The notes: generated by a model from the letters alone, not told the origin. A stretch of 64,000 bases of DNA from an uncultured Nitrososphaeraceae archaeon (GCA_963779615.1 CAVZZA010000003.1:928001-992000), one strand, 5' to 3'; counted from the first letter of the stretch, positions 37,563 to 60,469 are shown. Translations and numbers: made by a program.

Positions 37563-37622
37563 TAACCATATGCTTAAGGATAACCATATGCTTAAGGATA
37601 ACCATATGCTTAAGGATAACCA
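37563..37622. repeat. Perfect 18-bp intergenic tandem repeat x3.3
   Basis: TAACCATATGCTTAAGGA at 37563, 37581 and 37599, plus TAACCA. Confidence 0.95.
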
Positions 37623-41567: not shown

Positions 41568-42190
41568 CCCATATTTATGACTATAATCAAACAAATCATT
41601 TTCACTATCAGCAAAATACCCGAAAAACAGAACTGCAAAATTCGGTCCCTTCAAAAAAAGACCTTTAGCGGTCCGGCTTTATACTGGCGTACATTAAACC
41701 CAATCATAGCGACAAAAAAATCACTTTGCTATGGCATCTCAAAAAGTTAAAGAAGCATGCAAAACTTATGGTATGGGTCTTTTTAGGGCATAAATGCCAG
41801 TAACCTACAGTTTAAATAATAAAAAAATAGATAGATAATAACAAAAATATACAGTCAAAGCATCCTATATAAAATAAATTTAGTTTTATTTTGATAATCC
41901 CGGCATTTCTCCTTGAACTAAACTATAGCATTATTTATTGAGAGGCAATTAGATTTATTCAATAGGGATTGACAGTATGAAATGAATCAGTCATCTCATT
42001 CACAATGGGCAAGTATGACCCACGGGTGCTCAAGGCATTATGAATTTAATTCATATAATATTTAAGGTGATGTGTTCTATCACTACTTGGAGAGTATTCT
42101 TTTATTGACATGCATATAACAAAAAAAATTGAAGTGTTACCGTTATTTTTTATTATTTGTGTTTTCTTCACACAATAAAGATATTTGTTT

Positions 42191-43039
42191 TCAAGATGGT
42201 AATGAGGTGGAATTCACGGTATTGGATGATGTGGGTTTAGCTGTAAGGACAATTATATCGCCGAATGTCTGTCCATTATCTTGGCTAATTCTCATTAGAG
42301 GTGTATCTGACCCGCCTGTTCCTTTGTCCCACCATGTAACATATACACCATCCCCTAACGCCTCTATTTCGGTGCGCTCTGATGAAAATCCTTTTGACTC
42401 ACTTAGGTTGATATCTTTACCAAATGTTTTTCCACCATCGTTTGATGTCCTTATGAATACATCAGGCGTGTATGTTGTATCATTCAAATTACCTCCAGTT
42501 GCTACAACATATACTTTATCGCCCTGGGCTGCAACCTTGAGTTCATATGGCGATGTTTTATTCTTACCATACGACATGACTTCGGATGCGGGTGTTGCAA
42601 TAGCAGAGTTGGAATCATCAGTTAATTTTACTTCAGGCCCAAAGGTTTTTCCATTATCATTAGATACTCGAATGTAAGCATCAGCAATTCCTGTTTTATT
42701 GTCTGCATAGGTAACATATACGTTGTTACCTGATGCGGATATATCTGCCTCAACGGAGGTTCCATTTGTAGAGTTACTCAGGTTGATCTTGTCACCAAAA
42801 TTCTGTCCATTATCATTGGAGGCTTTGAACATCACCTCATAATTTCCAGTTTTATTTCCCCACCATGCAACATATACATTGTTACCCGATGTGGCGATGG
42901 GGGCTTTTCCATCACTCCTGTCAAGATGCGGCCAAGAAAATGCATACGATGATTGAACAGGCATTAGCGTTGTAGCAGAAGTTAGTATTGTCAGAAAGCA
43001 TAGAGATAAAATTATTTCTACCTTGAGTTTAATTTTCAT
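42191..43039 (-). CDS. Secreted Asp-box (BNR/sialidase-like) repeat protein
   Basis: Signal peptide and four SxDxGxTF-type boxes (SNDNGQNF, SNDNGKTF, SNDGGKTF, SQDNGQTF). Confidence 0.85.
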   Translation of the reverse strand: MKIKLKVEIILSLCFLTILTSATTLMPVQSSYAFSWPHLDRSDGKAPIATSGNNVYVAWWGNKTGNYEVMFKASNDNGQNFGDKINLSNSTNGTSVEADISASGNNVYVTYADNKTGIADAYIRVSNDNGKTFGPEVKLTDDSNSAIATPASEVMSYGKNKTSPYELKVAAQGDKVYVVATGGNLNDTTYTPDVFIRTSNDGGKTFGKDINLSESKGFSSERTEIEALGDGVYVTWWDKGTGGSDTPLMRISQDNGQTFGDIIVLTAKPTSSNTVNSTSLPS

Positions 43040-43347
43040 TGATAATTCTATAAATCGGTATTATAAAAACAAATATTGATAAAAATACAATTTAAAATTC
43101 AATTTTTTTATATAAATCAAGATACAAATTGGCTTTATATTTGGAATGTCAAATACGTCTTTATCATACTCTTCAATTAAAGCCTAATTTCAGTACATTA
43201 TAAACCAGAGTTTGAAAACATTATAATAACTTTAAATTCCCTAATTGATGACTTTTTTATAGTTTTATGAGACACAATACATATTATCGAAAAGTTTGTA
43301 ATAATTTTATAAATTAATAACAATAATAATAATAATTGTAATTTTTA

Positions 43348-43390
43348 TACTGGCCGGGTCGTTTGAAGGCCATTTATGCCTCTAATCCAT
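43348..43390 (+). repeat. att-like dispersed motif, copy A
   Basis: TACTGGCCGG-GTCGTTT-GAAGGCCATT-TATGCCTCTAATCC, 29/35 identical to copy C. Confidence 0.7.
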
Positions 43391-43524
43391 ATTCAATCTA
43401 TACAAACATTACAGGATTTGGATTTACTTAATCAAATGTGTTTTTGATCGGAAAAAAATTAAAGTTATTGGTAACTGAAATAGTATTGCATTTGACTGCA
43501 TCTGGATGAAATAAAAAGTTGGAG

Positions 43525-44330
43525 TTATTGCATTCTACAACTGTCATCCCATCATGGTAAACTGTTCTAAGGAGTTGCGAGGTCGTTACTCCTTACAAAT
43601 TCTGCTTCATATACAATAATCCATCTTCGTCAAGTATTGCAAGCGGTTTACTTATGTCCAGAATTGTTGGACGTGCCCTTTGATTGTCTACAAATAATTC
43701 CATAAATCCTTTTTGCGGTTCTTTTGACCATTTGACATGCAACTGCATTTCGTGCCAGTGCCCCTTTAGCATAGGTGCAATCCATTTGATCGTGCAATCT
43801 ACAGCAGAGGAGAACAAATGTCAGGTTCATGATAATGAAAATGGCTTAATACACGGTGAGAAATTGGATTATTGTCACCGTAAATGCAACAGCAGGCGTA
43901 CAACCCTCATGCGGAGGGCCTGCAATCTGGAGGAATAAACAACACCATCTTGATCATGTTGATGCCACCGGATCCAAACGTAAAATCTACCAGAACTATC
44001 GTAATTTGAGGAAAACAGAGTAACCAATGGACCATACATCATCACCGTCCTTGAAATGGTGGTCTGTATGATCTTGAAGGGCTTTTGTAAGAACTACTTC
44101 GGATCTTACCACTTTTATCCCTCTTGTATTTGGATCTGGCTTATCAACTATGGTTGTTCCATCGGGATTTGTTGCAAATATCTCTTTTTTAACTGTACGT
44201 TTAAAGATTTAGTGTGGCAGGGCGGTTTGTATCCAGTTTAATCAAGATTCACGGTGAGTAGCCTGTATCAACAGATGAAGGCACCTGGCATCCCCAAGTG
44301 CGCAGGTTCTGAAAGGCAGACCATCATCTT
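43525..44330 (-). pseudogene. Polysaccharide-lyase-like (heparin lyase I fold) pseudogene
   Basis: 'RSEVVL..FKDGDDVW', 'WIRWHQ', 'KGHWHEMQLHVKWSKEPQKGFMELFVD', 'LYMKQNL', 'VYHDGMTV' across frameshifts. Boundaries are approximate. Confidence 0.65.
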
Positions 44331-44793
44331 CGTTCTCTTTTTAAGAAAAGCATCATTGAGAGGGCTATTCAATACTCGAAGGATAGCAGCAGAACTGAAA
44401 GATTTGATGACTGTTTTGAATGTTTTCCATGCAAAAAGAAGAAATGCAGACTAGAGCATGTCACAAATTGGTTGCATTTTTTTTCTAGACTATCATAACA
44501 GGGAATTGAAAACGCTTAGGCGAACAGAGCCTATATTCCCAACTTTTAACACAGTAGATTCTGTTTTTGATACAACGGAAATTAATTTGTTAGTGATTTT
44601 GTTTTTATCATATTGCTATGAGCCTACTAAGATGGGCCGCCTATTGTAATCATTATGCATAAGTATGTGGTAACAAGTGGCGGAATATAGAACTTAGACA
44701 CAATACGACCATCGATATGGATAAGGATGAAATTATAATTGTTATAGACAATAATAGAAATAGTATTAAATATTATCAAAAAAATAACATGTA

Positions 44794-45735
44794 TTGGATA
44801 ATAAAGATAAAGAATCCACAAACAACATGCCAAATCTTAAAGATAGTACATCATCTCCTGAAAAATCAGAGTATGGTTTAATGTTAAACAAATTGTGCAA
44901 TATTGAAGATTGGGATAATGCAGAAATTAAAAAACTAATAAAAAAATTACAAACTACAACTGTAGAATCATATCTTTGTCAAAAAGACTGGTCAATAATT
45001 AAAGGTAATATTTTTCTTCCTCGAAAACTTGGAGTTATCCACCGAAAAGATTGGGAATGGTCTATGGGAATACTAGCTATGCAAAGACTAAATAAATTAA
45101 ACAAAAACAATACTGCCTTAGGAATAGGAGTAGGACGGGAAGAAATTTTATTTCATTTAGCAAACAAATTGAAACATGTCTACGCTACTGATCTTTATGA
45201 TGGAAAACAGTGGGAAAACTTTGCACCATCTGACTTCCCAGAAAATCCCAAAAAATACTCCCCAATTGCATACTCAGAAAATTCTTTGACCGTGTTACGA
45301 ATGGATGGTACCCGTATAAATTTTCCCCCTCAAAGCTTTGACATTGCATTTTCGTTCTCATCGATAGAACATTTTAATGGTGAAAATCATACGGGTGCCC
45401 TTAAATGTTTAAGAGAAATGGAAAGGGTATTAAAAAAAGGGGGAATCGCCATAATAACAACTGAATTTATAATTAATGATAAAGATCATCATGAGTATTT
45501 TAATAGAGATACAATACATTCTCACCTAATAAATAAGCTAGATTCATTAAATCTAGTAGAGCCTCTCGATTTACGAATAACCTCAAAAACAATGGCTACA
45601 ACTATGGACTATTCCGATTGTGTTTATTGGGATACTTCAAGTGATGATTATTTCAAGGCTATGAATCCTCTAATAGTCATTAAACTTGGAGAAATAGTCT
45701 ATACGTCAGTAATGCTTGTTTTTCAAAAAAAATAA
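44794..45735 (+). CDS. Class I SAM-dependent methyltransferase
   Basis: 'HRKDWEW', 'LGIGVGRE', 'FDIAFSFSSIEHF', 'RVLKKGG'. Confidence 0.85.
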   Translation: MDNKDKESTNNMPNLKDSTSSPEKSEYGLMLNKLCNIEDWDNAEIKKLIKKLQTTTVESYLCQKDWSIIKGNIFLPRKLGVIHRKDWEWSMGILAMQRLNKLNKNNTALGIGVGREEILFHLANKLKHVYATDLYDGKQWENFAPSDFPENPKKYSPIAYSENSLTVLRMDGTRINFPPQSFDIAFSFSSIEHFNGENHTGALKCLREMERVLKKGGIAIITTEFIINDKDHHEYFNRDTIHSHLINKLDSLNLVEPLDLRITSKTMATTMDYSDCVYWDTSSDDYFKAMNPLIVIKLGEIVYTSVMLVFQKK

Positions 45736-46176
45736 CCCTTTCGAATGTTGTCCATCGGGAATACTTGAGGAATGCACATTCTGGCGTTTTTTGATTTTAT
45801 TAAATATTGTTTTATCATATGCATGAGACTAAAACATTTGAAATTATTCAATTTAGAATGCGCAAACTTGTCGTCCTTTAAGATTTTTAATGCTAATTAA
45901 TTAGGCTCTGAAGAAATATTTTATTTCGATTCAAAGATAGGTGAGTTAACGATGTAATAGGAGCTATCCAGAATTGCCTGTCATTTAAATTGAAAGGACA
46001 GAGTCAAAGAAATTTCCGTTAATATATCAAGACAAAACTTTCTATGCCCCAGATGATATTGCAAAGGGTATCAAGAGAAATGAGGATGAAAAGGATCCGC
46101 ATCCAGAAAATTTTCATGTTTAAAATGGGTTATTACCCCATGGTTATACAGCAATTGTTTTGCAATTTTGATATTT

Positions 46177-47355
46177 TTAATTAAATTCAACAATTTCAAT
46201 CCAGTTTGGGTCTTTACCTGACTCATACCTATTCAAGAGTTTTAATTCACCAGTTTCTTGATTGATTGCATGTACAGATACATGACCTGATTCCTGCCCT
46301 CCTGCAATCACAAAATTACCCCTAGGATCAACGTTAATACCACGTGGCGTCTTTTCAGTACCATAACTTTCAATGTATGTCAAATTCCCCGAGTGACGGT
46401 CAACAGCAAATGCAGCAATTGTACTAGTAGATCTTTCGCTTACGTATAGCCATTTGCCATCAGGCGTAATGTGAATATCTGCAACTCCAATAGCAGTAGA
46501 TTTCCCATCCCCCATTCCTGGCGCGGCATCTCCAGCCGCAGGAGTTGATGGTTCAAGGCCTATGTCAGGAGGCATTGCCGAAATTCTCTGGATTTCAGTT
46601 AAAATCCCTGTCTTGTTATCCATCTTGTAAGAATAAACCATACCATCCATTTCATTCGATACATAAACAAACCTGTTATTTGGCGAGAAATCAAAATGCC
46701 TTGGTCCAGAACCATCTTTAGTGTAAACAACAGATGGAGCGTTTGGTGTAAGAACTCCATTGGATTGATTAAACAAAAATTGTTTTATCTGTGCATTTCC
46801 CAAATGAGGCACATACACAAATCGATTTGACGGATCAACTAGAATTGAATGGGGATTATGACCTGTGGAAATTACCTGAACAGGTTCCGATTGAACAAAC
46901 CCCTCAAGGCCTATTGGATTCACAGCAATTTTGGCATTTGCGTCATTATTTGATACTGATAAAAGAAAGCGGCCCGTTTGATCCACTGAGATGTATACCA
47001 TGTTATCGGGTAATGATTCTTTAGAGAGCTGAGTCAGGTTACCTGTCTCTGAATTAATCAAATAGGTAATCACTGAAAAAGGTTCTGAACGAACAGAGGC
47101 ATAAAGGAATCGATGATCTGGGCTCAATGCCATATGCTTTACATTTGGTCCAGCAGGTACCTTTTCCACTATTTTCATATCACCGGTTTCAGGATTTAAC
47201 TTCATGACTACAATCTGTCCATCTTCGCCATTAGAAACATACACAAATGTTCCTTCTGAATAGGATTTATCTATTCCCATAAATAAAATTGGAATCATTA
47301 GCACTGCCACAAAGATTGGAATCCTAAAATCAAATCTAGTTTTCTTTTCCGTCAT
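46177..47355 (-). CDS. Secreted lactonase-family (6-phosphogluconolactonase-like) 7-bladed beta-propeller
   Basis: 'HSILVDPSNRFVYVPHLG', 'GSGPRHFDFSPN', 'ADIHITPDGKWLYVSER', 'PRGINVDP'. Start moved to ATG 47355, ahead of the signal peptide. Confidence 0.9.
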   Translation of the reverse strand: MTEKKTRFDFRIPIFVAVLMIPILFMGIDKSYSEGTFVYVSNGEDGQIVVMKLNPETGDMKIVEKVPAGPNVKHMALSPDHRFLYASVRSEPFSVITYLINSETGNLTQLSKESLPDNMVYISVDQTGRFLLSVSNNDANAKIAVNPIGLEGFVQSEPVQVISTGHNPHSILVDPSNRFVYVPHLGNAQIKQFLFNQSNGVLTPNAPSVVYTKDGSGPRHFDFSPNNRFVYVSNEMDGMVYSYKMDNKTGILTEIQRISAMPPDIGLEPSTPAAGDAAPGMGDGKSTAIGVADIHITPDGKWLYVSERSTSTIAAFAVDRHSGNLTYIESYGTEKTPRGINVDPRGNFVIAGGQESGHVSVHAINQETGELKLLNRYESGKDPNWIEIVEFN

Positions 47356-47477
47356 CCATAAATCGCTATTGCATCTACAAGCAGTATAAATAAAATTCTT
47401 GCGTGAGCCAACAAAAATTCCAAATGGATGTATCAAAATCTGATTGATTTCATTTCACAGACGTGGGTGAAGGCTGG

Positions 47478-47677
47478 ATTGGCGGCAGGGTTGACATAAT
47501 CACCATCTCTGTAGATACGATCATTTTCTTTTTCTCCTTCTTCTTTGATATCCAATTTTCAATTCATGTCGTAGCCTGCATTTCAGACAATTCCTTAATA
47601 TTGTTGGCTCTGAGCCTATAAATATAATCAAATTTGTAATGGACCGGATTGTTTGCAGTTTCTTTATGCCTGTAACC
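47478..47677 (-). repeat. 200-bp direct repeat copy 1 (integrase-like 5' stub, promoter and att-like motif B at 47638-47680)
   Basis: Colinear without indels with 52359-52558 (offset 4881). Encodes 'LDIKEEGEKENDRIYRDGDYVNPAAN' from TTG 47555. Confidence 0.9.
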
Positions 47678-48009
47678 CATCAAGTAACAAAAATGGTGGA
47701 GATTCATCACAAAATGTTTTATGTTTTATTTTACCTCATACCATCATAAATAGAAGTTTTGTAGTATCGATCTATGCATAGTGTAACCTCAAAGATATCA
47801 AGAATATCGACCTTCATAATTCTATAGTGAACAGAGTTGAATATTTTTAATATACACAAAATTTAGTATTTTAAGATAAGATCATTCCAAATTGCTATCC
47901 TTTTCTTTATACATTTTTTTCCAATTACTTTTTCAATTAGATAAAATTGAAAATATAAAAGCGAGATAAATTAATAGCAGATAAATTTCCAAATATAAAA
48001 GATCTATTT

Positions 48010-48381
48010 CTAAACCTCTTCTTGTTTTGTCCCGCATCTTATGCAGAACTTGGATCTTAGGTTAAGTTTTGAGCCACACTCGATGCAAAATTTTGATTCT
48101 GTGGTGGCGGTTAGTTTATTTGGAGCAGTTATTTTTGGCTCCGTTATTGTACTGGACAGTTTAGGCAAAGTGGTCTGAGACAAATCCCTTCCACTTTCGG
48201 CACTCTCTTCTCCTTTAAGATAAAGCATTATCCTTGGAACCACCTCCTTTCCCTTGGGATCATATACCTGTTCACACAGCCATATAACAAATTCTTTTAG
48301 CGTTAAATCAGGTGTAGAAAAGCCAAGAGTATGAGCAGATATGTATTCCTCGACTGCAGATCTACCGTTGAATGCTTTCAT
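48010..48381 (-). CDS. Protein with C-terminal double zinc ribbon
   Basis: 'KFCIECG..KFCIRCGTKQ'. Confidence 0.8.
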   Translation of the reverse strand: MKAFNGRSAVEEYISAHTLGFSTPDLTLKEFVIWLCEQVYDPKGKEVVPRIMLYLKGEESAESGRDLSQTTLPKLSSTITEPKITAPNKLTATTESKFCIECGSKLNLRSKFCIRCGTKQEEV

Positions 48382-48781
48382 TCCCGAGTATATTATATAC
48401 CTAATCTGGTTGATAACCTTTAATTGAATCTAATGCCAGTATGAAAATGCAGGTTTTATTTTAAATTAGATTGTTTGAATTATTTGTTGATAATTGTAAC
48501 GATAGGCCAACATCTCAATTTTAGAGTCGTCAAGTTTTTTTTTGGAACAAATGAACTTGCTCATTATTATAGTCCCAATTCGAAAATTTATTTCCCATGC
48601 AACTAATTTTTCTTTTGATCCCTTTCCCCTAGACTTTTTGATACATTGTTGATAGAAAGTACTTGAGAGATCAGTTGAATGAACAAGATTAACCTTGTAT
48701 CTCATATTGGCCTATTCCTCCCCTGGGCCGTTGTGATAAAGCCAAATAGTAAAGATAAGAATTTAAGCGTAGGACATACTT

Positions 48782-49075
48782 ATGATCATGGACAAAACAT
48801 CCAATTCTGGGGATGACAATGGAGCCCGTCACAATGTTGAAGGTTTTGTATTAGGCAGACTATCATCCAAACATGACTCAGGAGGCGACCCTTTAGTCGG
48901 CATTGGAGATTTGATGGATTCCATAGACACTACAATGTCTCCCCTACTAGATCAAGCAATTGAGGACTTGGTCGCTCAAAGCCTGATCCAATCTCCGGAT
49001 GGCGAAAACTACCAAATTACTCAGGATGGGATTAATGAACTAGAAAATAGGAAGAGAGAGGCAATACCACTTTAG
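48782..49075 (+). CDS. Hypothetical protein, possible winged helix
   Basis: 'AIEDLVAQSLIQ..NYQITQDGINEL' resembles a wHTH wing. Confidence 0.6.
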   Translation: MIMDKTSNSGDDNGARHNVEGFVLGRLSSKHDSGGDPLVGIGDLMDSIDTTMSPLLDQAIEDLVAQSLIQSPDGENYQITQDGINELENRKREAIPL

Positions 49076-49339
49076 TTACAAAAACTATTTTTATATAACC
49101 CAACTCAAAAGTTAAGACAAATTAGTAGAATATACAGATAGGAATTTTGGATATTGGAGATAAACAATAATTATTCTATTTTATTTTGGTGAACATTAAT
49201 GGAAACTTGCACTGTTTGTTTTAAAAAATGCGAATTAATCAAGATTAAAAACAAGCATCTGATCCCACAAAGCAGACACTATCCAAAATTTGTATTGATT
49301 GGCTAAACATATGCTTTGATGAAAACATCCTATAATTCT

Positions 49340-49684
49340 TTACACGGATTTCTTTAATTTATCGCTTGGAAATTTGATCATATTCTCCTTTTCGCGATTA
49401 AGATCGTCATCTGTCAAGTTGATTGCAGAAATTATTGTTGAATTATTCTCATCACTAAAGCCTTCGGTAAAAATGATCACATGTAATGAAGACTCTAAAA
49501 TGTCTAATATAGAATCATCAAATGGCGGTAATTTCAGCTCAAGATCTTTTCCTGGAATAACCGAACCCAAGTTATCGACATCAAGCAAAGTCACATTCAC
49601 TTTGTTCTTTTGCTCATTTATGCTGTTTACCTTTGCAAACATTAAGCCATCAGCATATGTATGGGCAATCAAACTAATAAACAA
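49340..49684 (-). CDS. Hypothetical protein
   Basis: Plausible composition; the antisense ORF is a shadow. Confidence 0.6.
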   Translation of the reverse strand: MFISLIAHTYADGLMFAKVNSINEQKNKVNVTLLDVDNLGSVIPGKDLELKLPPFDDSILDILESSLHVIIFTEGFSDENNSTIISAINLTDDDLNREKENMIKFPSDKLKKSV

Positions 49685-49874
49685 GATTCAATCTGTCGAC
49701 AGCTATACTCAATAACGATTATCAGATGGCAAACTTCGATGCCATAGAGGCCTATGGTTATTTCATAGATCTTGCTGGATAAAGTTACTCAATAAACGAC
49801 CATCAGTACTTTGCTCTATTTTGTGATTCCATCTTCTAGTTCTCTTTTGGCCTTACCTTTTCAACCAAACAAAG

Positions 49875-50333
49875 TCAACTGCTATGATAATAGTGATCAA
49901 TGGAATCAACTGTGGGCTGTATCTCACTTTCTTTTTTAACTACCTCCAGTATCTTGTTCCATATGTGCTTCTCAAACTCATATGCCACTATACCTCCAAC
50001 CGTAGCCCCTGCAGCAAGACCGATAGGTCCCCCAACCAAGAGTCCCACAGCACCTGTCCAAATAAGACTTCCAAACCATGCACCAGATGCCACCTCAATG
50101 GCATAATCATCCGGGTTGCCTGTCACGGATACATGAATCTCGCGCAAAGACCCTGCCCACACCTTAGGGGATTTATTTACGGCCACAATACTGCGTAAAG
50201 GGATAGAATTCATGGTTCCTTTGTATTCTGAAACAATCTCGATGTCCTTTTGAATTTGTATTTCTTGCTTTATGCTATCATATAGTTTGTCCAGGTTTGT
50301 GCTAAGACCACGATAATGCTGTACTTTTGCCAC
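49875..50333 (-). CDS. Hypothetical protein with glycine-zipper hairpin
   Basis: 'GAVGLLVGGPIGLAAGATVGG'. GTG 50333 is the likely start. Confidence 0.7.
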   Translation of the reverse strand: MAKVQHYRGLSTNLDKLYDSIKQEIQIQKDIEIVSEYKGTMNSIPLRSIVAVNKSPKVWAGSLREIHVSVTGNPDDYAIEVASGAWFGSLIWTGAVGLLVGGPIGLAAGATVGGIVAYEFEKHIWNKILEVVKKESEIQPTVDSIDHYYHSS

Positions 50334-50996
50334 AAAATTAAGTTTAAAAAGACACATTTAAAGCATTAGAAAGGGTTTCGCTTTTTCTTCCGAAATCAGA
50401 TGCGCTTTACCTTGAATAATCACAAAAAACGAATTTGCTCCAATCCTCATCATATTCATCTATTAGTAATGCAGCATTTTGATTGGTATGAATGTTACCA
50501 ACTTTTTTAGCTTTTAAACTGTTTGTTCTTTTCTTTTACTATCTAATGGTATATAATAATGGTGCCCATCAAATGCAAAAACCACAGGTACTATAGGGGG
50601 CATTTGCTTATCATAATCAATCAAAGTCTAGCTACTCTTGCCCTGTTTACCATTACTTGAATAAAAACACAATTGTTCATACAATTACCTTGTAATCTCA
50701 CATTATTTACCGTATTATTATTTACTTATAGTGATTCACAATAATAGAAAGTAGGGCCATAAGTTGTCACATATAGAAATGATATCAATGAGTATTTTGA
50801 AGAATTTTGCATGTTATTTAGGGTATGTTTTTTAATCCTAAATGACAAAAATTGGTAAAAAACCTAAAAAGTTCCTTTTTATATGACTAATAAATTTCAA
50901 AACGATACTAACATAATAACAACGAAAGGGATTGGCGGACATACAAGAATAGAAGCATAAAAAAAAGTTAAATAATCATCCAGAAATGGAAATACC

Positions 50997-51758
50997 ATGT
51001 TAAAATCAAAGGCAAGTGTATTTCTTGTCATATTTTTATCTGTTGTGTTTCCCACTAGCTCATTGCTGGCAACCAAAGGAAATGAAACTTTTGTAGATCG
51101 AAATATGGTCAATATGAATTTCAATATTTCTGGTTTGGTATACGATTTGAATTCGACACCTTTCAATACATCATATGCGGACTGGACTGCAAAATGGTGG
51201 CAATGGACATATTCCATTCCATGGAATAAGAATCCCTCATACGATGACACTGGAAAATATTGTGGCGAAAATCAGCATGGACCGGTTTGGTTCCTAACAC
51301 TTGCTTTTGAACATCCAGTTGAACGCACTTGCCATATACCTCAAAATACGGCGTTGCTAATCACATTATTAAATTCCGAATGTTCGTATGTGGAGTACAA
51401 ACATCTAGAGACCGAAGAAGAATTAACAGATTGTGCTAAAAAAATGCAGGATGTTGTGAGTGGAGCAGAAGCATCACTTAATGATATTACTATACCTAAT
51501 GTAGCAAAACATCGTATTCAGACAAATTTATTTGACTTTACATTGCCCCAAGATAATATACTGAATTTAACTGCTCAAACAACACAAGCTGTAGCCGATG
51601 GAAACTGGCTTTTTCTAAAACCGCTCCCACCTGGCAAGTATGAGCTGAAGGTAAAAGGAGAAATAGACAGAGTCTCTTCAAATGAGTTGGGCGGTAACGA
51701 ATATAACGGACCAATTGGATGGAATCAAACTACCACATACATCTTATGGGTTAATTAG
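50997..51758 (+). CDS. Secreted hypothetical protein (WTAKWWQW family)
   Basis: Signal peptide, 'WTAKWWQW..SIP..NP..D.TG.YC..Q.GPVWFL', 'AVADGNWLFLKPLPPG'. Confidence 0.85.
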   Translation: MLKSKASVFLVIFLSVVFPTSSLLATKGNETFVDRNMVNMNFNISGLVYDLNSTPFNTSYADWTAKWWQWTYSIPWNKNPSYDDTGKYCGENQHGPVWFLTLAFEHPVERTCHIPQNTALLITLLNSECSYVEYKHLETEEELTDCAKKMQDVVSGAEASLNDITIPNVAKHRIQTNLFDFTLPQDNILNLTAQTTQAVADGNWLFLKPLPPGKYELKVKGEIDRVSSNELGGNEYNGPIGWNQTTTYILWVN

Positions 51759-52229
51759 CATATTATTACGGTCATTTTTACCCCGGTTGTGCTCCATATT
51801 TTTTTGATCTGGACTAAAGAGTGAATATCGACTGTTTTTATAAAATCCTGATTATAAGGTAAGCACGAACTAGTCAGCATTGAAAAAGTAGCAAAACTTG
51901 CTTTCTATCTTTTTTTTCCTACATCTGCTCTATTTTACTATTCATATTTTACGTTATTATATTAAACTGAGACACACTAACCACCATTTTCAGCGAATAT
52001 GAAATATGATGATTGTCACCTAAATTGATATAATATTATAGATTGATATCCTATATTATATACCAGCCATACGAAAAGAATTGCAATATATAAGGTCGAT
52101 ATCGGTATTATCAAGATTTATTATTATGTTATTCTAATTTTTAAATTATTTTCTATAATTTTTTTTATTTAGTTTTTCTTTTTATTTCAAGTATTATATA
52201 TAATCACATATGAGATCTCATCAAAAAGA

Positions 52230-52436
52230 CTACATTTTAAATTTATATAACCAACACATTGTCTTCAAAGGTACCTCCAGACCCAGAAAATCATGGAAAA
52301 CATCCAATCTTTTAGGATATTGCCTATTTGTTTCAGAGGCCTTTAACACAATTAAAAAATTGGCAACAGGATCAGCATAATTATCTTCTCTGGTGATATC
52401 ATCATTTTCTTTTTCATCTTCTTCTTTGATATCCAA
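52230..52436 (-). pseudogene. N-terminal stub of a Nitrososphaeraceae-type tyrosine integrase
   Basis: 'DPVANFLIVLKASETNRQYPKRLDVFHDFLGL' resembles the N-terminal core-binding helices of these recombinases. No catalytic domain follows. Confidence 0.65.
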
Positions 52437-52558
52437 TTTTCAATTCATGTCGTAGCCTGCATTTCAGACACTTTCTTACTATTGTTGGCTCTGAGCCTAT
52501 AAATATAACCAAATTTTCAATGGGCCGGATCGTTTGCGGGCCATTTGTGCCTGTAACC
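52359..52558 (-). repeat. 200-bp direct repeat copy 2, including att-like motif C (52519-52558)
   Basis: AATGGGCCGG-ATCGTTT-GCGGGCCATT: the arms are inverted repeats matching at 8/10. Confidence 0.9.
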
Positions 52559-52583
52559 TGCAGTTTAACTACAATAACAATCC

Positions 52584-52925
52584 GGCTCTGTTCATTTAAG
52601 CACTTTCTCGTTGCCATGGTGATCTACAAACAGGTGGATCCGGTTTTTTGCATGCTTTAGTTTACAGTTCCTTGTCCACCATGGAAAATAATAATCGTTA
52701 AACCCCTTTTGGCCCTACCTTTGATGCATCAGTCATTCTCTCTATCAGGCTTTTCTCAAATTGAGAATGAATGCGATGATCTACTTATCACTACAGGCTT
52801 GGGCAGGATGCCCGCTAGCCATGGTCACCGTCATCCGTTGTTAAAACCGAATACTTGCCATACTTATTTGTCAACAAGAAGGGATAAAACGTTCCGCCAA
52901 AACCATACTTCTTTCAAAGACAAAC
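52584..52925 (-). mobile_element. Decayed IS6-family remnant (3' half plus one IR)
   Basis: IR GGCTCTGTTCATTTAAG at 52584. Fragments 'ERSMVLAERF', 'KYGK', 'FEKSLIERM', 'FNDYYFP..CKLKH' are homologous to the IS at 59131. Confidence 0.8.
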
Positions 52926-53038
52926 ATTAATCTGAAGAATTCATACAGGCTCTATCTAAATAGAATCCATCTTCGCAGGACAGGCATTTTGGGAGCCAAC
53001 CATAAGGAGTTTCCTTTTTTAGTAAAATATTTACAACA

Positions 53039-54517
53039 TCAATAACCAGGCAATGACCCTAGCCTTACCGCTTTAAATATCACATTACCATTTATGTTTA
53101 TTCCAAGCGTTAGCAGATCGCCAGGTTTTTTTGCCCCGACTTGTTTTGTGAGATCACTTGGTTTCCCTATTTCTTTTCCGTCTGCGGATATTATTACATC
53201 CCCTTTTCTTGTTAGATATCCATTGCTATCCACATCTAAAATAGCACCGTTTAATCCCACCCTCTCAGCTGGACTATTGGAAACAACAGATTGAATCAAT
53301 ATCCCTTTAGTGTGTTCAGGTAACCCCATTTCTTCTAATGTTGATGGCGACAAGTCAGTTACAGAAACACCCAGCCATGGAGTTGAAGATGCCAAATAGA
53401 CTCCTGAATTGTTACCCTCATGATTTTCACTTTTGCTTTTTTGACTTGACAGTATATATGGCGACAATTCGTGTGCGTTGGGTTGGGTTTCATCCTTTAA
53501 CTGCAGCTTTTCCATCAACGAAACAAATGACAGGAACTGTTTGTCGTTAATGTTAGACAAGTAATCGCGAATCACATGGCTGTTTGTGTTACGCCATATC
53601 ACTATCTCATCAATCCCTTTAGTTTTGTTTGCTATTGACAATGTGGCGAGGATCAATCGATCTGATGGTGGATCATATCCTTGTTCAGCAAAATTGGATG
53701 TTTTTGCAGTGTACAGTACAAACTTTAATGGCTTTTTATGGAACACTTTGGAAAACGTATCCAGATTATGCTGAAGATCAGCCACACTGTAATAGTTTGA
53801 GCTAGCCAAAACAATGCCATCAGAATAATCATAGAAATATTTTTTGACATCATTTGTACCCAGTCCCTCAAGGTAAACAACAGGAAAAAAATTCAAATCA
53901 TTTCTTTTGTGTTGTAGCGCCCTATCTAGTTTTGACTTTATCATAAATTTGACGTTTTCTTGTATCTTTTGCTTTCCATCAAGACCGTCATCTTTTTTAT
54001 CCTTGCCTTCACTGGGGCCAAACCAATTAAAGTCATCTATCACAAAACCATAAAGGGAAGGGTGACTTGACTTTAGCAAATTGAGATACTTTATCCACCC
54101 CTCCCAATCATAATCACCATTTTCTCCACCTTCGGAAGGGGGCAACAATATTGGAATCATCCTCAAAGTTGTATTGTCGGCGGCACCCAAAAGACTGGCA
54201 GTTTGAGATTGTTTTGATTTGGATTTGTAATCTTTGAGCACAAAATAATATTCTTTGTATCCCTGTTTTAACAGCAAATCCATCGCCATTATTTTGTCAT
54301 TGCGGTTTGGGAGAGACTCCAAGGGAAATTGATTTGATGTCCATGCACCAAAACTTGCAATTTTTGGTTGACTTATGGTTGAATTTGTTCCTAGTTTGAT
54401 ATTATCGGCAAGTCCATAAGCTTTCACACAAAAACAGGGTATTGATAGCCATGACATGGAATAAACAAGCCCTGCTGCAAAAATAACCAAAAAAACAAGA
54501 CAATAATCCAATTTCAT
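53039..54517 (-). CDS. Secreted protein: putative (beta/alpha) catalytic-like domain plus C-terminal PDZ
   Basis: Signal/TM segment, 'YGFVIDDFNW', PDZ 'PWLGVSV..GILIQSVVSNSPAERVGL..GDVIISADG'. Confidence 0.8.
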   Translation of the reverse strand: MKLDYCLVFLVIFAAGLVYSMSWLSIPCFCVKAYGLADNIKLGTNSTISQPKIASFGAWTSNQFPLESLPNRNDKIMAMDLLLKQGYKEYYFVLKDYKSKSKQSQTASLLGAADNTTLRMIPILLPPSEGGENGDYDWEGWIKYLNLLKSSHPSLYGFVIDDFNWFGPSEGKDKKDDGLDGKQKIQENVKFMIKSKLDRALQHKRNDLNFFPVVYLEGLGTNDVKKYFYDYSDGIVLASSNYYSVADLQHNLDTFSKVFHKKPLKFVLYTAKTSNFAEQGYDPPSDRLILATLSIANKTKGIDEIVIWRNTNSHVIRDYLSNINDKQFLSFVSLMEKLQLKDETQPNAHELSPYILSSQKSKSENHEGNNSGVYLASSTPWLGVSVTDLSPSTLEEMGLPEHTKGILIQSVVSNSPAERVGLNGAILDVDSNGYLTRKGDVIISADGKEIGKPSDLTKQVGAKKPGDLLTLGININGNVIFKAVRLGSLPGY

Positions 54518-54890
54518 TTTTAAAGAAATTATTCTTCCAATACACAGGAATCAGAAAATGACCAATTTATTTTTAACTGGCATTTTATCGCGTATACCTC
54601 TGAGAATTTGAGGTTTTCCGACTTTGGAGGTCCCGAAAACAAATTGATTTTTTCTAATTTCAACTCACCATTATCACTTGTTATAATGGGCTTAATTCTC
54701 AAACAACATCTTGATTCCATTAAGGAAATCATATTCTTAATGTCATAATAATAACTATAAGACATGACTTTTAGAACAGTGGTTTTAATAGCACGCCATA
54801 ATCAAATGAATGATCTTCAAAAAAGAGATTATTGCTGTTGGGTGCGATCTTTTTAGTAATTACAACTTTAATTTATGAATGCTGCAATTG

Positions 54891-54934
54891 TTTTTTTCGG
54901 GTGGTTTGCAAGCCATTTATATGCCTTTAATCCA
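54891..54934 (+). repeat. att-like dispersed motif, copy D
   Basis: ..CGG-GTGGTTT-GCAAGCCATT-TAT(AT)GCCTTTAATCCA. Confidence 0.65.
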
Positions 54935-55713
54935 AAATTTGATTAATGAAAAGAATAATACGATTTTTTTAAGTGTAGTCCAGATTCATATTGTTAACGG
55001 ACAACTTTGAGTTTTAATTAATCATCAACGAAAAAACAGTTAAATGTTAAAATAGTTCAAAAATGGGTCTAGTGGGATTGGTGATGATACGGGTTCTTAA
55101 AAAGGAATCTATTGTTTTATTAGGTGAATGGTAATTTTAAAGTTTATCAATTTTAATATGCTTTTTCTATGTCAATTTGTTAATTATTAAAAAGTCTTTA
55201 AAAGGTGCAAAGTCTTGCCATTAGGGGAGAGACTGCACCACCGGACAATGGGGGCAGAAACAGGGAGATAAACAGGGCAAGGTCGCCGTAGGAGCCTAAA
55301 GACCACGCTGACCTTGATTTAGGTGCTGGAGAGTCAGAGGAAGAACCGCTGTCGCTCAATGAGGATTAACAAAGTAGTACTGCTCATAACCTGTAGCATT
55401 TGCAGGCATGCTCAATTTATTGCATGGTTGCGAATGTTGCGTCTACCGCAACTGCAAGAGGGATCCTTGGTTTGCATACACCAATAAAGAATCTGGTAAA
55501 GTCTTGACCCGGGAGTGATCTGCTGTGCCGGATTCATCATTGCCTCATAGGGATAAAGACGTGTTTAAATGCGGCTGCCAAGGGCAATTATGATCGTAAA
55601 ATAGCAAACAAAGTCATCCTGTTTGCCAAAAAAATAGGTTTGTATTGGCTGACAGGCGGTGGCTACTGTTTGCCGGCCTTCTATAACGTGTTCCCGGTTT
55701 GGCAAGTGGCAGG

Positions 55714-55927
55714 TCAGGGGTTCAGGAAAAACACTTGGATACTGTTGTTGCCAGAATCAGCTACATACACGTTGCTTGTTGCGGGATTAACGGTCACTTC
55801 TACGGGAAACATAAACTGGCCGTTGCCGGTACCAAAGGATCTCCATTTCGCTAAGAAGTTGCCAGTGATGTCAAACACCTAGATGCGGTTGTTGCTGGTA
55901 TCTGCCACATACACGTTGCCTGTTGAC
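55714..55927 (-). pseudogene. NHL-repeat protein remnant
   Basis: 'GNVYVADTSNNRI*VFD..GNGQFMFP..NVYVADSGNNSIQVF' with an in-frame TAG at 55879-55881. Confidence 0.85.
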
Positions 55928-56044
55928 AGTTCACGGTCCCTTGGTGATAGTTGGCAACTGCCATGTGGTGAAGCAGCTGCAGCTGCTGCACCCAAGGCTT
56001 TGACTGCAACGCTTATGCATAACCATCAGCTACAACTCCCGTTT

Positions 56045-56689
56045 TCACCCGGGAGATTGGTGTTTCACATTGTCGCCCCACTCTGGCTTTGCATTGCCCA
56101 AAATCGAGTTTCTAACAAGGCTGCTTGCCACAGGCTTGGGTATGTTGCAATAGGACGAAATGCAGTCCACAACCCTGTTTGAGCATGATATGCTCTTGCA
56201 CAGGGACAGGCTTTCCCTAAAGGACTTGACTGGATCTTGAGACGCAAAGGCCTCCAACATCACCATTCCGCGTATGTTCCCCTTCGCGTCGGGGAAGTGG
56301 TCAGACAGCAGGGCATCCAGCTCATCCAATGGCAAACCAAGCTCCCCCATACGGCCATAGTAAACCTCATCCTCACCCTTGCCGTCAACGGCACCGCCTT
56401 CCCCCCCGATAGCAGGCTGGGGGCCAAGCATCACACCATCATTGCCTGGGCTCCCTTCCGCACCCTGAAGGCTGCCGCCATTAAGCAGGGGTCTCTTATC
56501 CAACCAAAACGGCACAGCAGCCTTGGCTGTAGTGTCCACAAGATTGTATGACCTGTCGTATAGCACCCCCTTGTTGCCGTGTATGGACTGAAGGTGTCGC
56601 AGGGCATTAGACCTTCTTCCCATCTTTGTATCACAGGCCGGGCAGTAGTATGGCGATTTTCTCAACTCTATCACCCATCCATATGCCAA
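56045..56689 (-). CDS. Protein with N-terminal C2H2 zinc finger
   Basis: 'YYCPACDTKMGRRSNALRHLQSIHG', GC-rich codon usage. Confidence 0.75.
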   Translation of the reverse strand: MAYGWVIELRKSPYYCPACDTKMGRRSNALRHLQSIHGNKGVLYDRSYNLVDTTAKAAVPFWLDKRPLLNGGSLQGAEGSPGNDGVMLGPQPAIGGEGGAVDGKGEDEVYYGRMGELGLPLDELDALLSDHFPDAKGNIRGMVMLEAFASQDPVKSFRESLSLCKSISCSNRVVDCISSYCNIPKPVASSLVRNSILGNAKPEWGDNVKHQSPG

Positions 56690-57332
56690 ACTGCTTAGAT
56701 AACATCACCAAATAAACTATATAGACTATATATACATTCTAGGGCGCATGTGAAGCCACATGAGAGGTTAACCGAACATGCGCCATAGATTGGTGCAACG
56801 CGGCAGGGACACCAGGGTCGAGGGAAACAGAAGGTTTACAGGGTAGCAAATGAGTTACTCTGAGGCACTCTTCATGGCACAGGCGTTTCACTCCTTGACT
56901 GGCTGGCCGGAATAGCGGTCAATCCCTAGACTCAGGACACGCTCGCCTTCAGCATGATTTCTGGTGAGGTTCATGGATGAGGCATTTTCCCTGGAGCGTG
57001 CAGCAGCACAAGCCTACGCTCTAATGTTGAGTGGCAGGGCACGGTTTAGGGCTGTCCTTGCAGCAGGGCATTAACTACAACAACTCAAAACCCTTAAAGA
57101 CTCTAGGACGTTGTCGCCCTTAAAGCAGCCTGAGAGTAGCTTTTGTTCAATGGCAGGGCTCCTAGCAACCGGTGAAGTGGCTGCCTGGCCTCCACCACAA
57201 GACTGTTCACATCAAGGCCAGATGAAAGTGCGGAACCAAAGAATGTATGTGACCCGAGTCTTGGTTACAAGTTTGACTGAAAAATAAGGGCTTATGGACT
57301 TGCCTGTGAGAGTATGGCAATGAGAAAATAGG

Positions 57333-57678
57333 CTAGGCAGGCCTTCCACAGGCGTTGGTTACTGTACATGTTGCGTTCTGGCCCGGATTGCCTATTGTGC
57401 AGTTGCACCCATCCGAAAATGTGGTTGTGAGTGGAGCTATCGCAGAGGCGGTGTTGCAACCAAAGTTTGGCACGTACAAAAACCCGTTGTCTTCGTTAAA
57501 GGCAATGCCACGTGGAGCGGTGACCACGGTATGGGGTACCCACAACGGTGTTTGTTACCGGGTTTATCACTAATACGGCATTGCTATCGATGTTCACCAT
57601 AAACATAAAGCCGTTGCTGGGGCGGAAGGCAATGTCAATTGGATCTATTCCGACGGGTATGGAGTCCACAACGGTGAT
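57333..57678 (-). pseudogene. YVTN/YncE beta-propeller remnant, 5'-truncated
   Basis: 'TVVDSIPVGIDPIDIAFRPSNGFMFMVN..VINPVTNTVV/PRGIAFNEDNGFLYV', frameshifted. Confidence 0.8.
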
Positions 57679-57722
57679 TATTCAAATAATTACAATAAAT
57701 TGATGATAAACTGCAATTTGTA

Positions 57723-57762
57723 TATAGACCGGGTTGTATATGGGTCAAATATGCCCTTAATC
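57723..57762 (+). repeat. att-like dispersed motif, copy E (degenerate)
   Basis: TATAGACCGG-GTTGTAT-ATGGGTCAAA-TATGCCCTTAATC, 26/40 identical to copy A. Confidence 0.55.
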
Positions 57763-57929
57763 TAGACTGTAAGTAAAATAACAAAATAGAGAAATAAATC
57801 AAGAATAAATGCTTAACTTTTGAATTCTATTAATCATCTATCTCATCCAGAGTGGACTTCTAATAAATTATTCAATATCGATAGTATAGGATATAAATAA
57901 TAATAATAAATTCAAAAATATAATTTGAG

Positions 57930-58865
57930 TTGACGTTGTTGAAAATAGGCTATCCTTGCATAAATTTAACTTTAAAAAACCCTTATTCTTCAACATTTAG
58001 ATTAAAATCATTTTCCGAAAAAAGGTTTAATGAAACTGTAAAAAACAACCTTAACCATCTATCAAAGATATTAAAATTTAATTTAAACAATAATATTTTG
58101 TTTTTTAGATTAAGTTCAGGCATAATACCTTTTGCATCTCACCCAGTATGCAACATTAATTGGGATTACATATTTAAAACAGAATTAAACGAAATTGGCG
58201 AATTCATAAAGAAAAATAACATGCGAATATCAATGCATCCAGATCAATTTGTCATTCTCAATTCAAAAAATGAAAAAATAATTGAAAATAGTGTTAGAGA
58301 ATTACAATATCATTCTAAAGTATTGGAGAGCATGAATTTAACACACAATGCAAAAATTCAAATTCATATTGGAGGAGTTTATGAAGATAAAATAACATCA
58401 AAGGAACGATTCATAAAAACCTTTATGAAATTGGAAGAGAACTTGAAAAAGAGAATCATAATTGAAAATGACGACAGATCATATGCTTTAAAAGATTGTT
58501 TGGATATTAGCTATGAGACAGGCATTCCAATTGTTTTTGACACTCTCCATCATGAGTGTCTAAACAACAACGAGACCGTACAAGAAGCACTAACATCCGC
58601 AACCAACACATGGAAATATGTTTTGGATGGCAATCCTATCATGGACTACAGTAGCCAAAGCATAGGTGAAAGAAAAGGGAAACATACAAAAACTATTGAC
58701 AAAAATCATTTTATTTCCTATTATAAAGAATTAGTTAAATCTTCCAACAATAAACCCATGGCTGCAGCAGACATAATGTTGGAGATAAAAGACAAAGAAA
58801 ACAGTGCATTGTTGGCTTTGGATTTGATAAAGAATAACAACAACAATCAATGCCAAGAAATTTAG
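57930..58865 (+). CDS. uvsE: UV DNA damage endonuclease
   Basis: 'IGYPCIN', 'FFRLSSGIIPFASHP', 'RISMHPDQF', 'IHIGG', 'IENDD', 'VFDTLHH', 'DIMLEIKDKE'. Confidence 0.95.
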   Translation: MTLLKIGYPCINLTLKNPYSSTFRLKSFSEKRFNETVKNNLNHLSKILKFNLNNNILFFRLSSGIIPFASHPVCNINWDYIFKTELNEIGEFIKKNNMRISMHPDQFVILNSKNEKIIENSVRELQYHSKVLESMNLTHNAKIQIHIGGVYEDKITSKERFIKTFMKLEENLKKRIIIENDDRSYALKDCLDISYETGIPIVFDTLHHECLNNNETVQEALTSATNTWKYVLDGNPIMDYSSQSIGERKGKHTKTIDKNHFISYYKELVKSSNNKPMAAADIMLEIKDKENSALLALDLIKNNNNNQCQEI

Positions 58866-59130
58866 AATATTCTATATTTATTTGATAACACTTGAGCAAG
58901 CAAGATACAATTTCTTTACACGTGTTTTTTAAAACTAACAAAAAAAACAAAATAACAAATAACATTACACAAAAATTATATTATTATATTACTATGCTGT
59001 CATGTTCCTACCAAAAGATAAAGATAAACAATAATGAAAACACAAAAGGGAGTTTTAGTTTAAAAGACAGGGATATCCACTACCCTATTTTCTTCATCAT
59101 CAGTCATGCTCTTGTCAACATATAAGGAAC

Positions 59131-59801
59131 GGCTCTGTTAACTTAACGGCTTAACTCATTATTATGATATTCAACAAATAGATTCATCCAATTTGGCACA
59201 TGCTTTAGTTTGCATTTTATTGTTCTACAGGGAAAGTAGTCGTCGAAACACTCTGTTCTGTCCTTGATATACTGCATTGTCCTTTCAATCAGGCTTTTCT
59301 CAAATGAAGAATGTATGTGATGAGCTAGTTTTAGGAATCTACAAGCTTGAGGATACCATGTACCGCCATCTGTGGAAACTGTGTTTTCCATAGTCTCTGA
59401 CAATGTTTGACAGAAAACGTTCTGTGACAAACATGTTTCTCTCCTTGGATATGGTTAGTGCGAGAATTTGATGGTTTTTTGACTCGATGGCAACCCAGAG
59501 CCATACTAACTCTGAACCTACTTTAATCAAAGTCTCATCAACAATGTATTCCGCAATCTTCTTTCTTTTTGACGACATTCTCTGAGGATGATATTTCTGA
59601 ATCCACTTCCAGATCGAAACATGACTTCTCTTAACCTTATGTAAAAAGAACATTGCTTTGGCAACACCTCTAGTTGACAGACCCAGAAAATACAAATACA
59701 ATGCGTGACCAATATCTGATGAAGGTGTTCTGTTTCTCGTATTGGACATACCAGAAATAGGGCATCTTTAAGCTATATCATTTTCTTAAGTTAACAGAGC
59801 C
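59131..59801 (-). mobile_element. IS6-family element (671 bp), transposase frameshifted
   Basis: Perfect 16-bp IRs GGCTCTGTTAACTTAA at 59131-59146 and 59786-59801. 'VDETLIKVG..WLWVAIE', 'STDGGTWY', 'LIERTMQYIKDRT'. ORFs 59339-59749 and 59143-59430. No TSD. Confidence 0.93.
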
Positions 59802-60469
59802 TTATTATCTATGATCATTTTTTGTTCCATTGAAAACAAACATTTGTCATGTCCCATATTTTTCCGATAAATGCTGTTCCATTACCATCAGCATCGTTGA
59901 ATATTCTCATGAGAAATGCATAATCGCAATCAAAAATTCGCACCGCACAGTGAAACTTTAGAAAACGTTTTACCAGTATCATATATTTCATCCCACTACA
60001 AGATATTTTTTTATCGGTCGTCAAAGAGGCATTTCTTCTAAATAGATCTTTTTATTCTAAATGGTATAAACTGTATATGATCTGTATCAAGCTTGAGTGC
60101 AATCAATCTATCTGGAATGATTCATCCATTTGTTATTCCTAGCATTCCATCATATCTTTTGTTTGAACTTTGTATTTTAGCTGCAACAATCTGTGTTAGA
60201 TCCTACTTCCCCCAATTGTAATACTCTTTATGGTATTATTTTTTATTCACTTCTTCTTTTTTGAACTTCAAATTACTATTAATACTGTTTACTATAACAA
60301 CAACATCAATATTAACGATCAGAATTTTGTATCTATGGTTCTATTATTAATAGTGCCCGGCATTTCCCTTATTTAGATAAGATAAAACTTCAAATGGCCT
60401 TGTCAACCTAACGATAAACTATAGCTCGAAGCTACTCTTTTTCTCAAATGTTCAATACAAGAATAGAAG

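Follow-up and report, generated by a model that had tools for sequence, protein, structure and literature searches.

A stretch of 64,000 nucleotides from an uncultured Nitrososphaeraceae archaeon (GCA_963779615.1 CAVZZA010000003.1:928001-992000) carries five co-oriented copies, A to E, of an attachment (att)-like motif with blocks of genes between them. This whole stretch is called the window, and positions refer to it unless a contig is named. The five copies are probably attL-type junction scars of an island built by serial integration into the 3' end of tRNA-Val(GAC). The array would have formed by tandem accretion of integrative elements, followed by integrase decay, insertion sequence (IS) insertions, and rearrangement, and it would be a new Nitrosocosmicus example of a known process. 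The initial annotation had read the sites as junctions of serially integrated elements at a tRNA-type site, and the analysis supports that reading. The genome under study is designated G000, and C2 and C3 are two of its contigs; other G-numbers denote relatives, and L-numbers denote loci.

All five copies lie on the + strand. Copy A (CTGGCCGGGTCGTTTGAAGGCCATTTATGCCTCTAATC) occupies 43348..43387 (E = 1.8e-14), B occupies 47638..47677 (E = 4.4e-13), C occupies 52519..52558 (E = 1.4e-16), D occupies 54891..54932 (E = 2.7e-10), and E occupies 57723..57762 (E = 1e-11). Copy C is the best preserved in the window. B, D, and E are decayed; D contains a 2-nt insertion, and E resembles the tRNA T arm more than any other window copy. 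The start-to-start distances from A to E are 4290, 4881, 2372, and 2832 nt, and the positions, single orientation, and spacings proposed in the initial annotation were all reproduced. A hidden Markov model (HMM) was constructed from the alignment of nine G000 copies and searched against the whole 3.17-Mb genome. The nine copies scored between E = 1e-10 and 7e-18, and three additional copies were found at E < 0.01, every one of them on the 29.8-kb contig C2. Weaker matches were C3:1000423 (E = 0.14) and C3:1007671, which is the tRNA itself (E = 1.5); the others were noise. A pattern for the right half, allowing at most one mismatch, occurs at six sites in the window, and A to E account for five of them. 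The repeat is thus real, far beyond chance, and limited to a few places rather than being a genome-wide motif. The motif is longer than first described, with approximately 10–15 nt on its left (AAATTTGTAA, the tRNA trailer) partly conserved, and the aligned window copies have 1–5 mismatches in a 12-nt core.

A core of inverted arms around a 7-bp spacer had been proposed as a trait of the whole family, and this part of the initial description did not hold. The arms match at 8/9 to 8/10 positions in copy C and at 6/8 to 6/9 in the other four, and a best arm score of at least 8/10 was reached by 160 of 2000 random 48-mers drawn from the window (8%). The structure is good only in C, at a score that chance also attains. 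Two further candidates were rejected. Hairpin covariation (GACC/GGTC in copy E) is lost in the C2 counterpart of E and across the family, and a leaderless small open reading frame (ORF) starting at ATGGGCC would be read in different frames in different copies.

The source of the motif was located by comparison with the tRNA genes. ARAGORN places an intact tRNA-Val(GAC) on the minus strand at C3:1007674-1007748, equivalent to window coordinates 79674-79748 and 15.7 kb past the right end of the window; it calls no tRNA gene within the window. One further motif copy sits between E and this gene. The reverse complement of the tRNA 3' end opens with TGGGCCGGGTCGGATTCGGACC. Its first 12 nt are identical to the best copy in G000, at C3:187.5 kb, and its first 15 nt are identical to the commonest scar variant in the genus. 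Among the 38 tRNAs called by ARAGORN in the genome, tRNA-Val(GAC) is the best match to the motif. These data give a specific identity, with an identical core of 12–15 nt, to the general likeness to a tRNA 3' end that had been noticed from the window. The rest of the motif resembles a diverged tRNA copy extending from the T arm to the anticodon loop, and in copy E and the C2 copies the sequence falls between that of the tRNA and that of the consensus. Orientation is uniform: the six C3 scars at 971–1000 kb and the tRNA hit all lie on the + strand (7/7), and all seven matches on C2 share one strand. In G019 and G023, the sequence found left of B and C runs directly into an intact tRNA-Val(GAC) on the opposite strand. 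ARAGORN also made a second tRNA-Val(GAC) call in G000, at C1:252905-253651 with a 653-nt 'intron'. This call is probably false, and its sequence resembles part of a histidine-kinase or response-regulator gene.

Remnants of a classical tyrosine integrase adjoin B and C. The flanks of these two scars share 200 nt at 85.5% DNA identity that end at the motif, and in both the stub begins 83 nt left of the scar and points leftwards. The flank of C (52275..52518, minus strand) comprises a TATA-like promoter region and the 5' stub of the integrase gene, with a 68-residue ORF at 52230-52436 whose translation contains ..DPVANFLIVLKASETNRQYPKRLDVF... The flank of B (47478..47637, minus strand) is homologous to 52359-52518 and comprises a promoter region and a decayed stub that reads away from B. 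The translation of the B stub begins LDIKEEGEKEND... and is decayed beyond, so that the stub is recognizable solely through its DNA identity to the stub at C. The full-length 427-residue integrase of G011 was used as the tblastn query for stubs. Left of C, residues 35-81 matched window positions 52415-52275 with 49% identity (E = 7e-8), and left of the intact tRNA the match covered residues 49-102. The N-terminal motif ..ALKAPETKRQYPKRL.. is present in minus-strand ORFs at both of these places. The same query found two fragments on C2, and at seven loci in relatives it found N-terminal fragments, extending to about residue 223 at most, beside scars or tRNA fragments. A six-frame comparison of nine homologous flanks revealed one conserved frame, which lies on the minus strand and leaves the motif (..DPVANF..ALKAPETKRQYPKRLEVF..). 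These results show that the integrase-like 5' stubs reported earlier beside B and C are real, lie on the minus strand, and belong to a classical tyrosine integrase. Searches with PF00589 and PF16795 gave no matches in the array or on C2, where tblastn detected N-terminal integrase fragments only. The six-frame comparison also disposed of two other assignments of the flank, one as the chromosomal flank of the tRNA and one, from a weak tblastn match, as a + strand int(N) stub.

An intact gene of the same kind was found in G011, where the 427-residue integrase gene abuts tRNA-Val(GAC) and scores 27.8 bits with PF00589, above the cut-off. This protein is 50–54% identical to the full-length integrases of G000 at tRNA-Ala(TGC) and tRNA-Arg(GCG). 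A full-length integrase of the family is located at C3:386.4-387.6 kb in G000. The integrase family has seven matches in G000, only two of which are full-length and uninterrupted. The matches include C1:130189-130932 and C4:267820-268647. Among three further matches listed besides the two full-length ones, one is truncated at tRNA-Arg(TCG), and those on C4 and C2 are truncated with in-frame stops. Integrase decay beside tRNA genes seems to be the rule in G000.

The distribution of the scars was determined in 41 genomes, consisting of G000 and 40 relatives. Copy C with its left flank matched in eight of them, namely G000 and 7 of the 24 relatives of the same genus (Nitrosocosmicus), and in none of the 16 genomes outside it. 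The target itself, tRNA-Val(GAC), is present in 34 of 34 genomes of the genus. In six relatives assembled into long contigs, the 50 kb on the 3' side of this gene are free of scars. A conserved chromosomal flank defines this side of the gene. It contains a lactonase with a seven-bladed beta-propeller (46177..47436, minus strand; PF10282, E = 4e-74), which is found on the 3' side of the tRNA in G012, G015, G024, G041, and G020, at a distance of only 2.9 kb in G015. In at least 10 relatives, homology to the lactonase region terminates at 47452-47473, the left edge of the B stub. This break identifies B, the scar beside the lactonase flank, as the outermost junction of an island of approximately 32 kb that reaches the tRNA. 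Scar A is on the left of the lactonase flank, where synteny breaks locally just past a BNR-repeat gene; homology to the BNR block in relatives stops at 43117. G020 has an independent array in which the lactonase is followed by four scars and then by tRNA-Val(GAC).

G048 and G011 form an empty and occupied pair. In G048 a flank directly adjoins the intact tRNA; in G011 that flank adjoins a 13–14-nt core instead, 56.8 kb from the tRNA-adjacent integrase. The integrated element of G011 (G011:C6:496494-553426; L027-L029 and L073) is 56.8 kb long, has the intact 427-residue integrase, and has a core repeat of 13–14 nt. A second junction type (TGGGCCGGGTCGGGTGTTCC...) recurs in several genomes (L050, L068, L069, and L055:12510). 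It stands 11 nt after a main scar copy in three loci and is of the same type as the far junction of the G011 element.

Assembled contigs of four other metagenome runs were also compared, the best of which contained 0.23 of the sampled words. On a 701-nt contig, window sequence 52458-52558, which stops at the final base of scar C, is followed by 71 other letters and then by 57839-58108, upstream of the UV-damage endonuclease gene uvdE; both blocks between C and E are therefore absent from it. A second joint, from 47473 to 57677, appears on one contig whose shorter side is 23 letters; it is too weak and was not counted. The site-bounded indel on the single 701-nt contig is the only hint of mobilization in cis with an incoming element. 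The presence and absence breakpoints in relatives, which had been set as a test of the junction idea, fall at or beside the sites.

These data suggest how the array could have been assembled. The first 12–16 nt of a scar correspond to the tRNA end, from the discriminator base through the 3' acceptor strand into the first part of the T stem, and strand exchange would take place within this core. The following 22–26 nt or so would derive from the element's own att site and form a diverged pseudo-copy of the tRNA that spans the T arm through the anticodon loop. A crossover in the core would leave the tRNA intact with the integrase end of the element adjoining it, and the element-side arm would land at the far junction. 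In the presumed order of events, each later element would re-enter the intact tRNA and displace the earlier ones outward. A classical tyrosine integrase gene would lie at the tRNA-proximal end of each element and be transcribed away from the att site, and an enzyme of this kind is presumed to be behind the commonest scar type. In G000 such genes would then have decayed to 5' stubs or been lost, and IS insertions, deletions, and rearrangements would have scrambled the blocks to leave integrase-less cargo between co-oriented scars. The scars and integrase stubs account for the low coding density and the synteny breaks of the region.

This arrangement has the features of integration at a tRNA gene: a co-oriented repeat together with an intact tRNA, an integrase beside the att site (stubs only in G000), and an empty site in relatives. 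It also has those of tandem accretion, with at least two tandem blocks that are separated by att sites and have lost their integration genes. Tandem accretion is known in bacteria, in cis-mobilizable elements (CIMEs), and has been noted for archaea. A review of integrative mobilizable elements (PMC5704250) describes how an element integrates and decays until it lacks an integrase but retains its att sites, after which another element integrates. The model for ICESt1/ICESt3 of Streptococcus thermophilus, as given there, resembles our array in using the 3' end of a target gene, in having co-oriented att sites between blocks, and in directing new integration to the site that carries the intact gene end. 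The array differs in being archaeal, in having at least seven junctions on C3, and in containing no visible conjugation or transfer genes. According to Krupovic et al. 2019 (PMC6563490), archaeal elements with tyrosine recombinases form arrays by re-use of a site, the att sites of thaumarchaea have a short median length of 17 bp, and one SSV1-like split integrase is recorded among the elements of Thaumarchaeota. The use of tyrosine recombinases in tRNA genes is common to those elements and ours, and the core here is 12–16 nt. The thaumarchaeal arrays described there are pairs of proviruses or casposons, whereas ours is a multi-scar, integrase-less series at one tRNA. 'Nitrosocosmicus' is absent from the main text of the survey, whose supplementary tables may list elements of the genus under strain codes.

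The contents of the blocks were compared with the relatives and with profile databases. In the B-to-C block, at least three segments that are separate in relatives are combined into a mosaic. The C-to-D block carries an IS6/IS240-like fragment (52584..52941, strand unassigned), 25 nt right of scar C, and contains a gene for a PDZ-domain protein (53039..54517, minus strand); a further IS fragment lies at 44203-44537. The D-to-E block (54933..57722) contains fragmentary ORFs and 144-nt periodic repeats that are also found elsewhere in the genome, and it is probably a pseudogenized repeat-protein gene. Its GC-rich character, bracketed by D and E as first reported, was confirmed by a GC content of 0.47 at 56–58 kb compared to 0.28–0.39 across the other 2-kb bins of the window. 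Neither the small ORFs nor the GC-rich block gained any further assignment from Pfam. Right of E is uvdE (57930..58865, + strand), which occurs in G000 only in the array and on C2, where it has a scar on both sides; the C2 unit is 1.5 kb with one annotated gene. A full IS6/IS240-like copy (59128..59802, minus strand) takes the place of the scar that follows uvdE on C2 and ends the homology between C3 and C2. This element is approximately 680 bp and has about 50 copies in the genome at 66–78% identity, and its copies and fragments interrupt the array. The genes between the sites lie on both strands. Outside the array, two short arrays of 18-nt tandem repeats were observed at 34316-34405 and 37563-37622, the first of them inside an ORF that codes for an acidic D/N/K-rich repeat.

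C2 (L012 and L013) is a diverged second version of the array. It shares three blocks at 90–98% identity with window 52297-59130 and C3:994833-1001870, and it has 8.7 kb of its own sequence that holds two extra scars. One end of C2 carries an IS transposase gene, and near the other is a 16-nt tRNA-end fragment. C2 could be a second locus or a co-assembled strain. The best-preserved scar of the genome (C3:187498-187605; L014:7494-7605, minus strand) is inverted and lies approximately 780 kb from the array, accompanied by 105 nt of the integrase-stub flank. In G012, G015, and G024, the genes that lie right of the tRNA in G000 are inverted and located on its other side. Together, the inverted scar and the inverted gene position suggest that recombination between scars also rearranged the chromosome by inversion. 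The order of the BNR and dCache genes in G004 is opposite to that in G000, and the coordinates in G041 agree with G004.

Several observations weigh against serial accretion at tRNA-Val(GAC). A total of 42 copies were found, which reduce to 34 non-redundant contexts. A complete catalytic integrase domain lies beside none of the 34, in G000 or elsewhere, and the element-side arm differs in the sole intact element found at tRNA-Val(GAC), that of G011. The right flanks of the copies are mutually unrelated except for C3 and C2 counterparts and short IS-related matches. The motif half on the element side (..TGCAGG.CAT..T.TGCCTGTAAYC) hardly varies across the 34 contexts and stops sharply on its right, and this uniformity of the non-tRNA half across species exceeds what passive scars suggest. 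Some copies may derive from duplication rather than from separate integrations, because the 200 nt common to the B and C flanks are 85.5% identical and the part of the array that extends right from C recurs on C2 at 90–98%. Simple accretion does not account for scar A, which lies beyond the lactonase flank. Relatives carry part of the 'cargo' as ordinary chromosomal DNA: they have pieces of the B-to-C block on other contigs with no scar close by, and G018 has a uvdE of 90% DNA identity that adjoins no scar. The virus and plasmid hallmark families of PHROGs match none of the 37 scanned ORFs of the array and C2.

The near invariance of the element-side half is the starting point for a different explanation, which we consider unlikely. 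The 38-nt site with its AT-rich left arm would be a working site, and an integrase encoded elsewhere would excise integrase-less cassettes as circles and return them to the tRNA or to other sites. G000 does encode full-length integrases of the appropriate family elsewhere, short intervals of 0.87–4.9 kb occur, the uvdE unit on C2 is a 1.5-kb single gene with a site on each side, and one metagenome contig shows the site-bounded loss of two blocks. The sharp right edge in 34 non-redundant contexts also fits. However, in the assembled contigs compared, G000 showed no circles or alternative junctions, no cassette was found at two positions of the array or in two genomes with sites on both sides, and the window copies are decayed, differing from the 12-nt core at 1–5 positions. 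The mosaic blocks include IS fragments and genes on both strands, and several breakpoints are located away from sites. In favor of working sites, the strict element-side pattern was found in 12 stretches from 11 assemblies among approximately 186,000 species genomes, all labeled Nitrosocosmicus or Nitrososphaeraceae except for one labeled Nitrosopumilus, and in 10 metagenome contigs and no viral contigs. None of these 10 contigs and 12 stretches has a catalytic integrase beside the site, and no free or intact element with the commonest scar type was present in the viral contigs, the metagenome contigs, or the species-genome stretches.

The initial annotation had gone further and likened the array to an integron. 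Integrons are arrays of cargo separated by co-oriented sites, with a linked integrase, an attI site, and a common promoter, and their sites are folded imperfect palindromes. The co-oriented sites of our array part its cargo in a similar manner. However, it has no linked integrase, attI, or common promoter, no head integrase gene with attI and promoter, and no structurally conserved attC-like palindromes; its sites are conserved in sequence, and its blocks are multigene with both strands used. The integron-like reading was not upheld, because no integrase with a complete catalytic domain is present in the array or on C2, the genes occupy both strands, the B-to-C block is a mosaic, and IS copies interrupt the series. 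Partial tRNA repeats delimit cargo blocks in islands beside tRNA genes in the tycheposons of Prochlorococcus. These belong to another domain of life and use other integrase families.

The trapping of elements by 'suicidal' SSV-type integrases, in which the att-containing gene is split into int(N) and int(C), is quite unlikely as the origin of the scars, although enzymes of this type act on the same tRNA in relatives. PF16795 ORFs in relatives read through tRNA-Val(GAC) (..YGPSRIRTNEPRHVK..) and adjoin 43–45-nt repeats, 91–96% identical to the 3' half of the tRNA, or repeats of the 5' half. Zinc-finger int(N)-like stubs stand directly left of two C2 copies and of the copies in L045 and L065. 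On the other hand, no int(C) was found to the right of any copy among the 34, with tblastn applied to the array at E ≤ 1, the B and C stubs are a classical unsplit integrase that reads away from the site, and the true SSV-type repeats are nearly identical to the tRNA over 43–45 nt, unlike the scar motif. SSV-type gene capture as described in a review (PMC8371274) likewise targets a tRNA half and traps decaying elements, and relatives use tRNA-Val(GAC) in this way. The window differs in its unsplit stubs and in having no int(C) by any copy. SSV-type enzymes may have contributed some blocks. Related elements were observed at the same gene in other genomes. L030 (G024) and L034 (G007) are elements of approximately 10 kb and L041 (G043) is one of approximately 2.7 kb, all flanked by repeats of the 5' half of tRNA-Val(GAC), and in G024 and G007 the integrase ORFs are of SSV type and run through the tRNA in its own direction (..AGGLAWLRYRLDMA..). 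The 5'-half repeats in G024, G007, and G043 indicate that tRNA-Val(GAC) is targeted at both halves in the genus.

A regulatory DNA element, such as a transcription factor site or promoter module, or a small structured RNA upstream of unrelated genes is hardly credible: at B, C, and F, the TATA-like box some 25 nt to the left of the motif is part of the minus-strand integrase stub, the hairpin possible in copy C is not conserved, strong copies (E < 0.01) occur solely in the array, on C2, and at C3:187.5 kb, Rfam gives no matches at E ≤ 1 in window 41000-60000, and the distances to start codons differ (126, 202, and 309 nt).

Serial integration at tRNA-Val(GAC) identifies this gene as a hot spot for integration in a genus of ammonia oxidizers from soil. 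At least four kinds of junction are found there, comprising three element-side arms on the 3'-end core and SSV-type repeats of the 3' half and the 5' half. The array also illustrates a route for the assembly of a strain-specific island of approximately 32–36 kb that contains sensor, secreted-protein, and DNA-repair genes. A simple handle on the trans-mobilization of integrase-less archaeal DNA would be available if the conserved half of the motif is a working site. If the unlikely cassette explanation is true, the array would be an archaeal counterpart of integrons and CIME arrays, able to capture single chromosomal genes such as uvdE.

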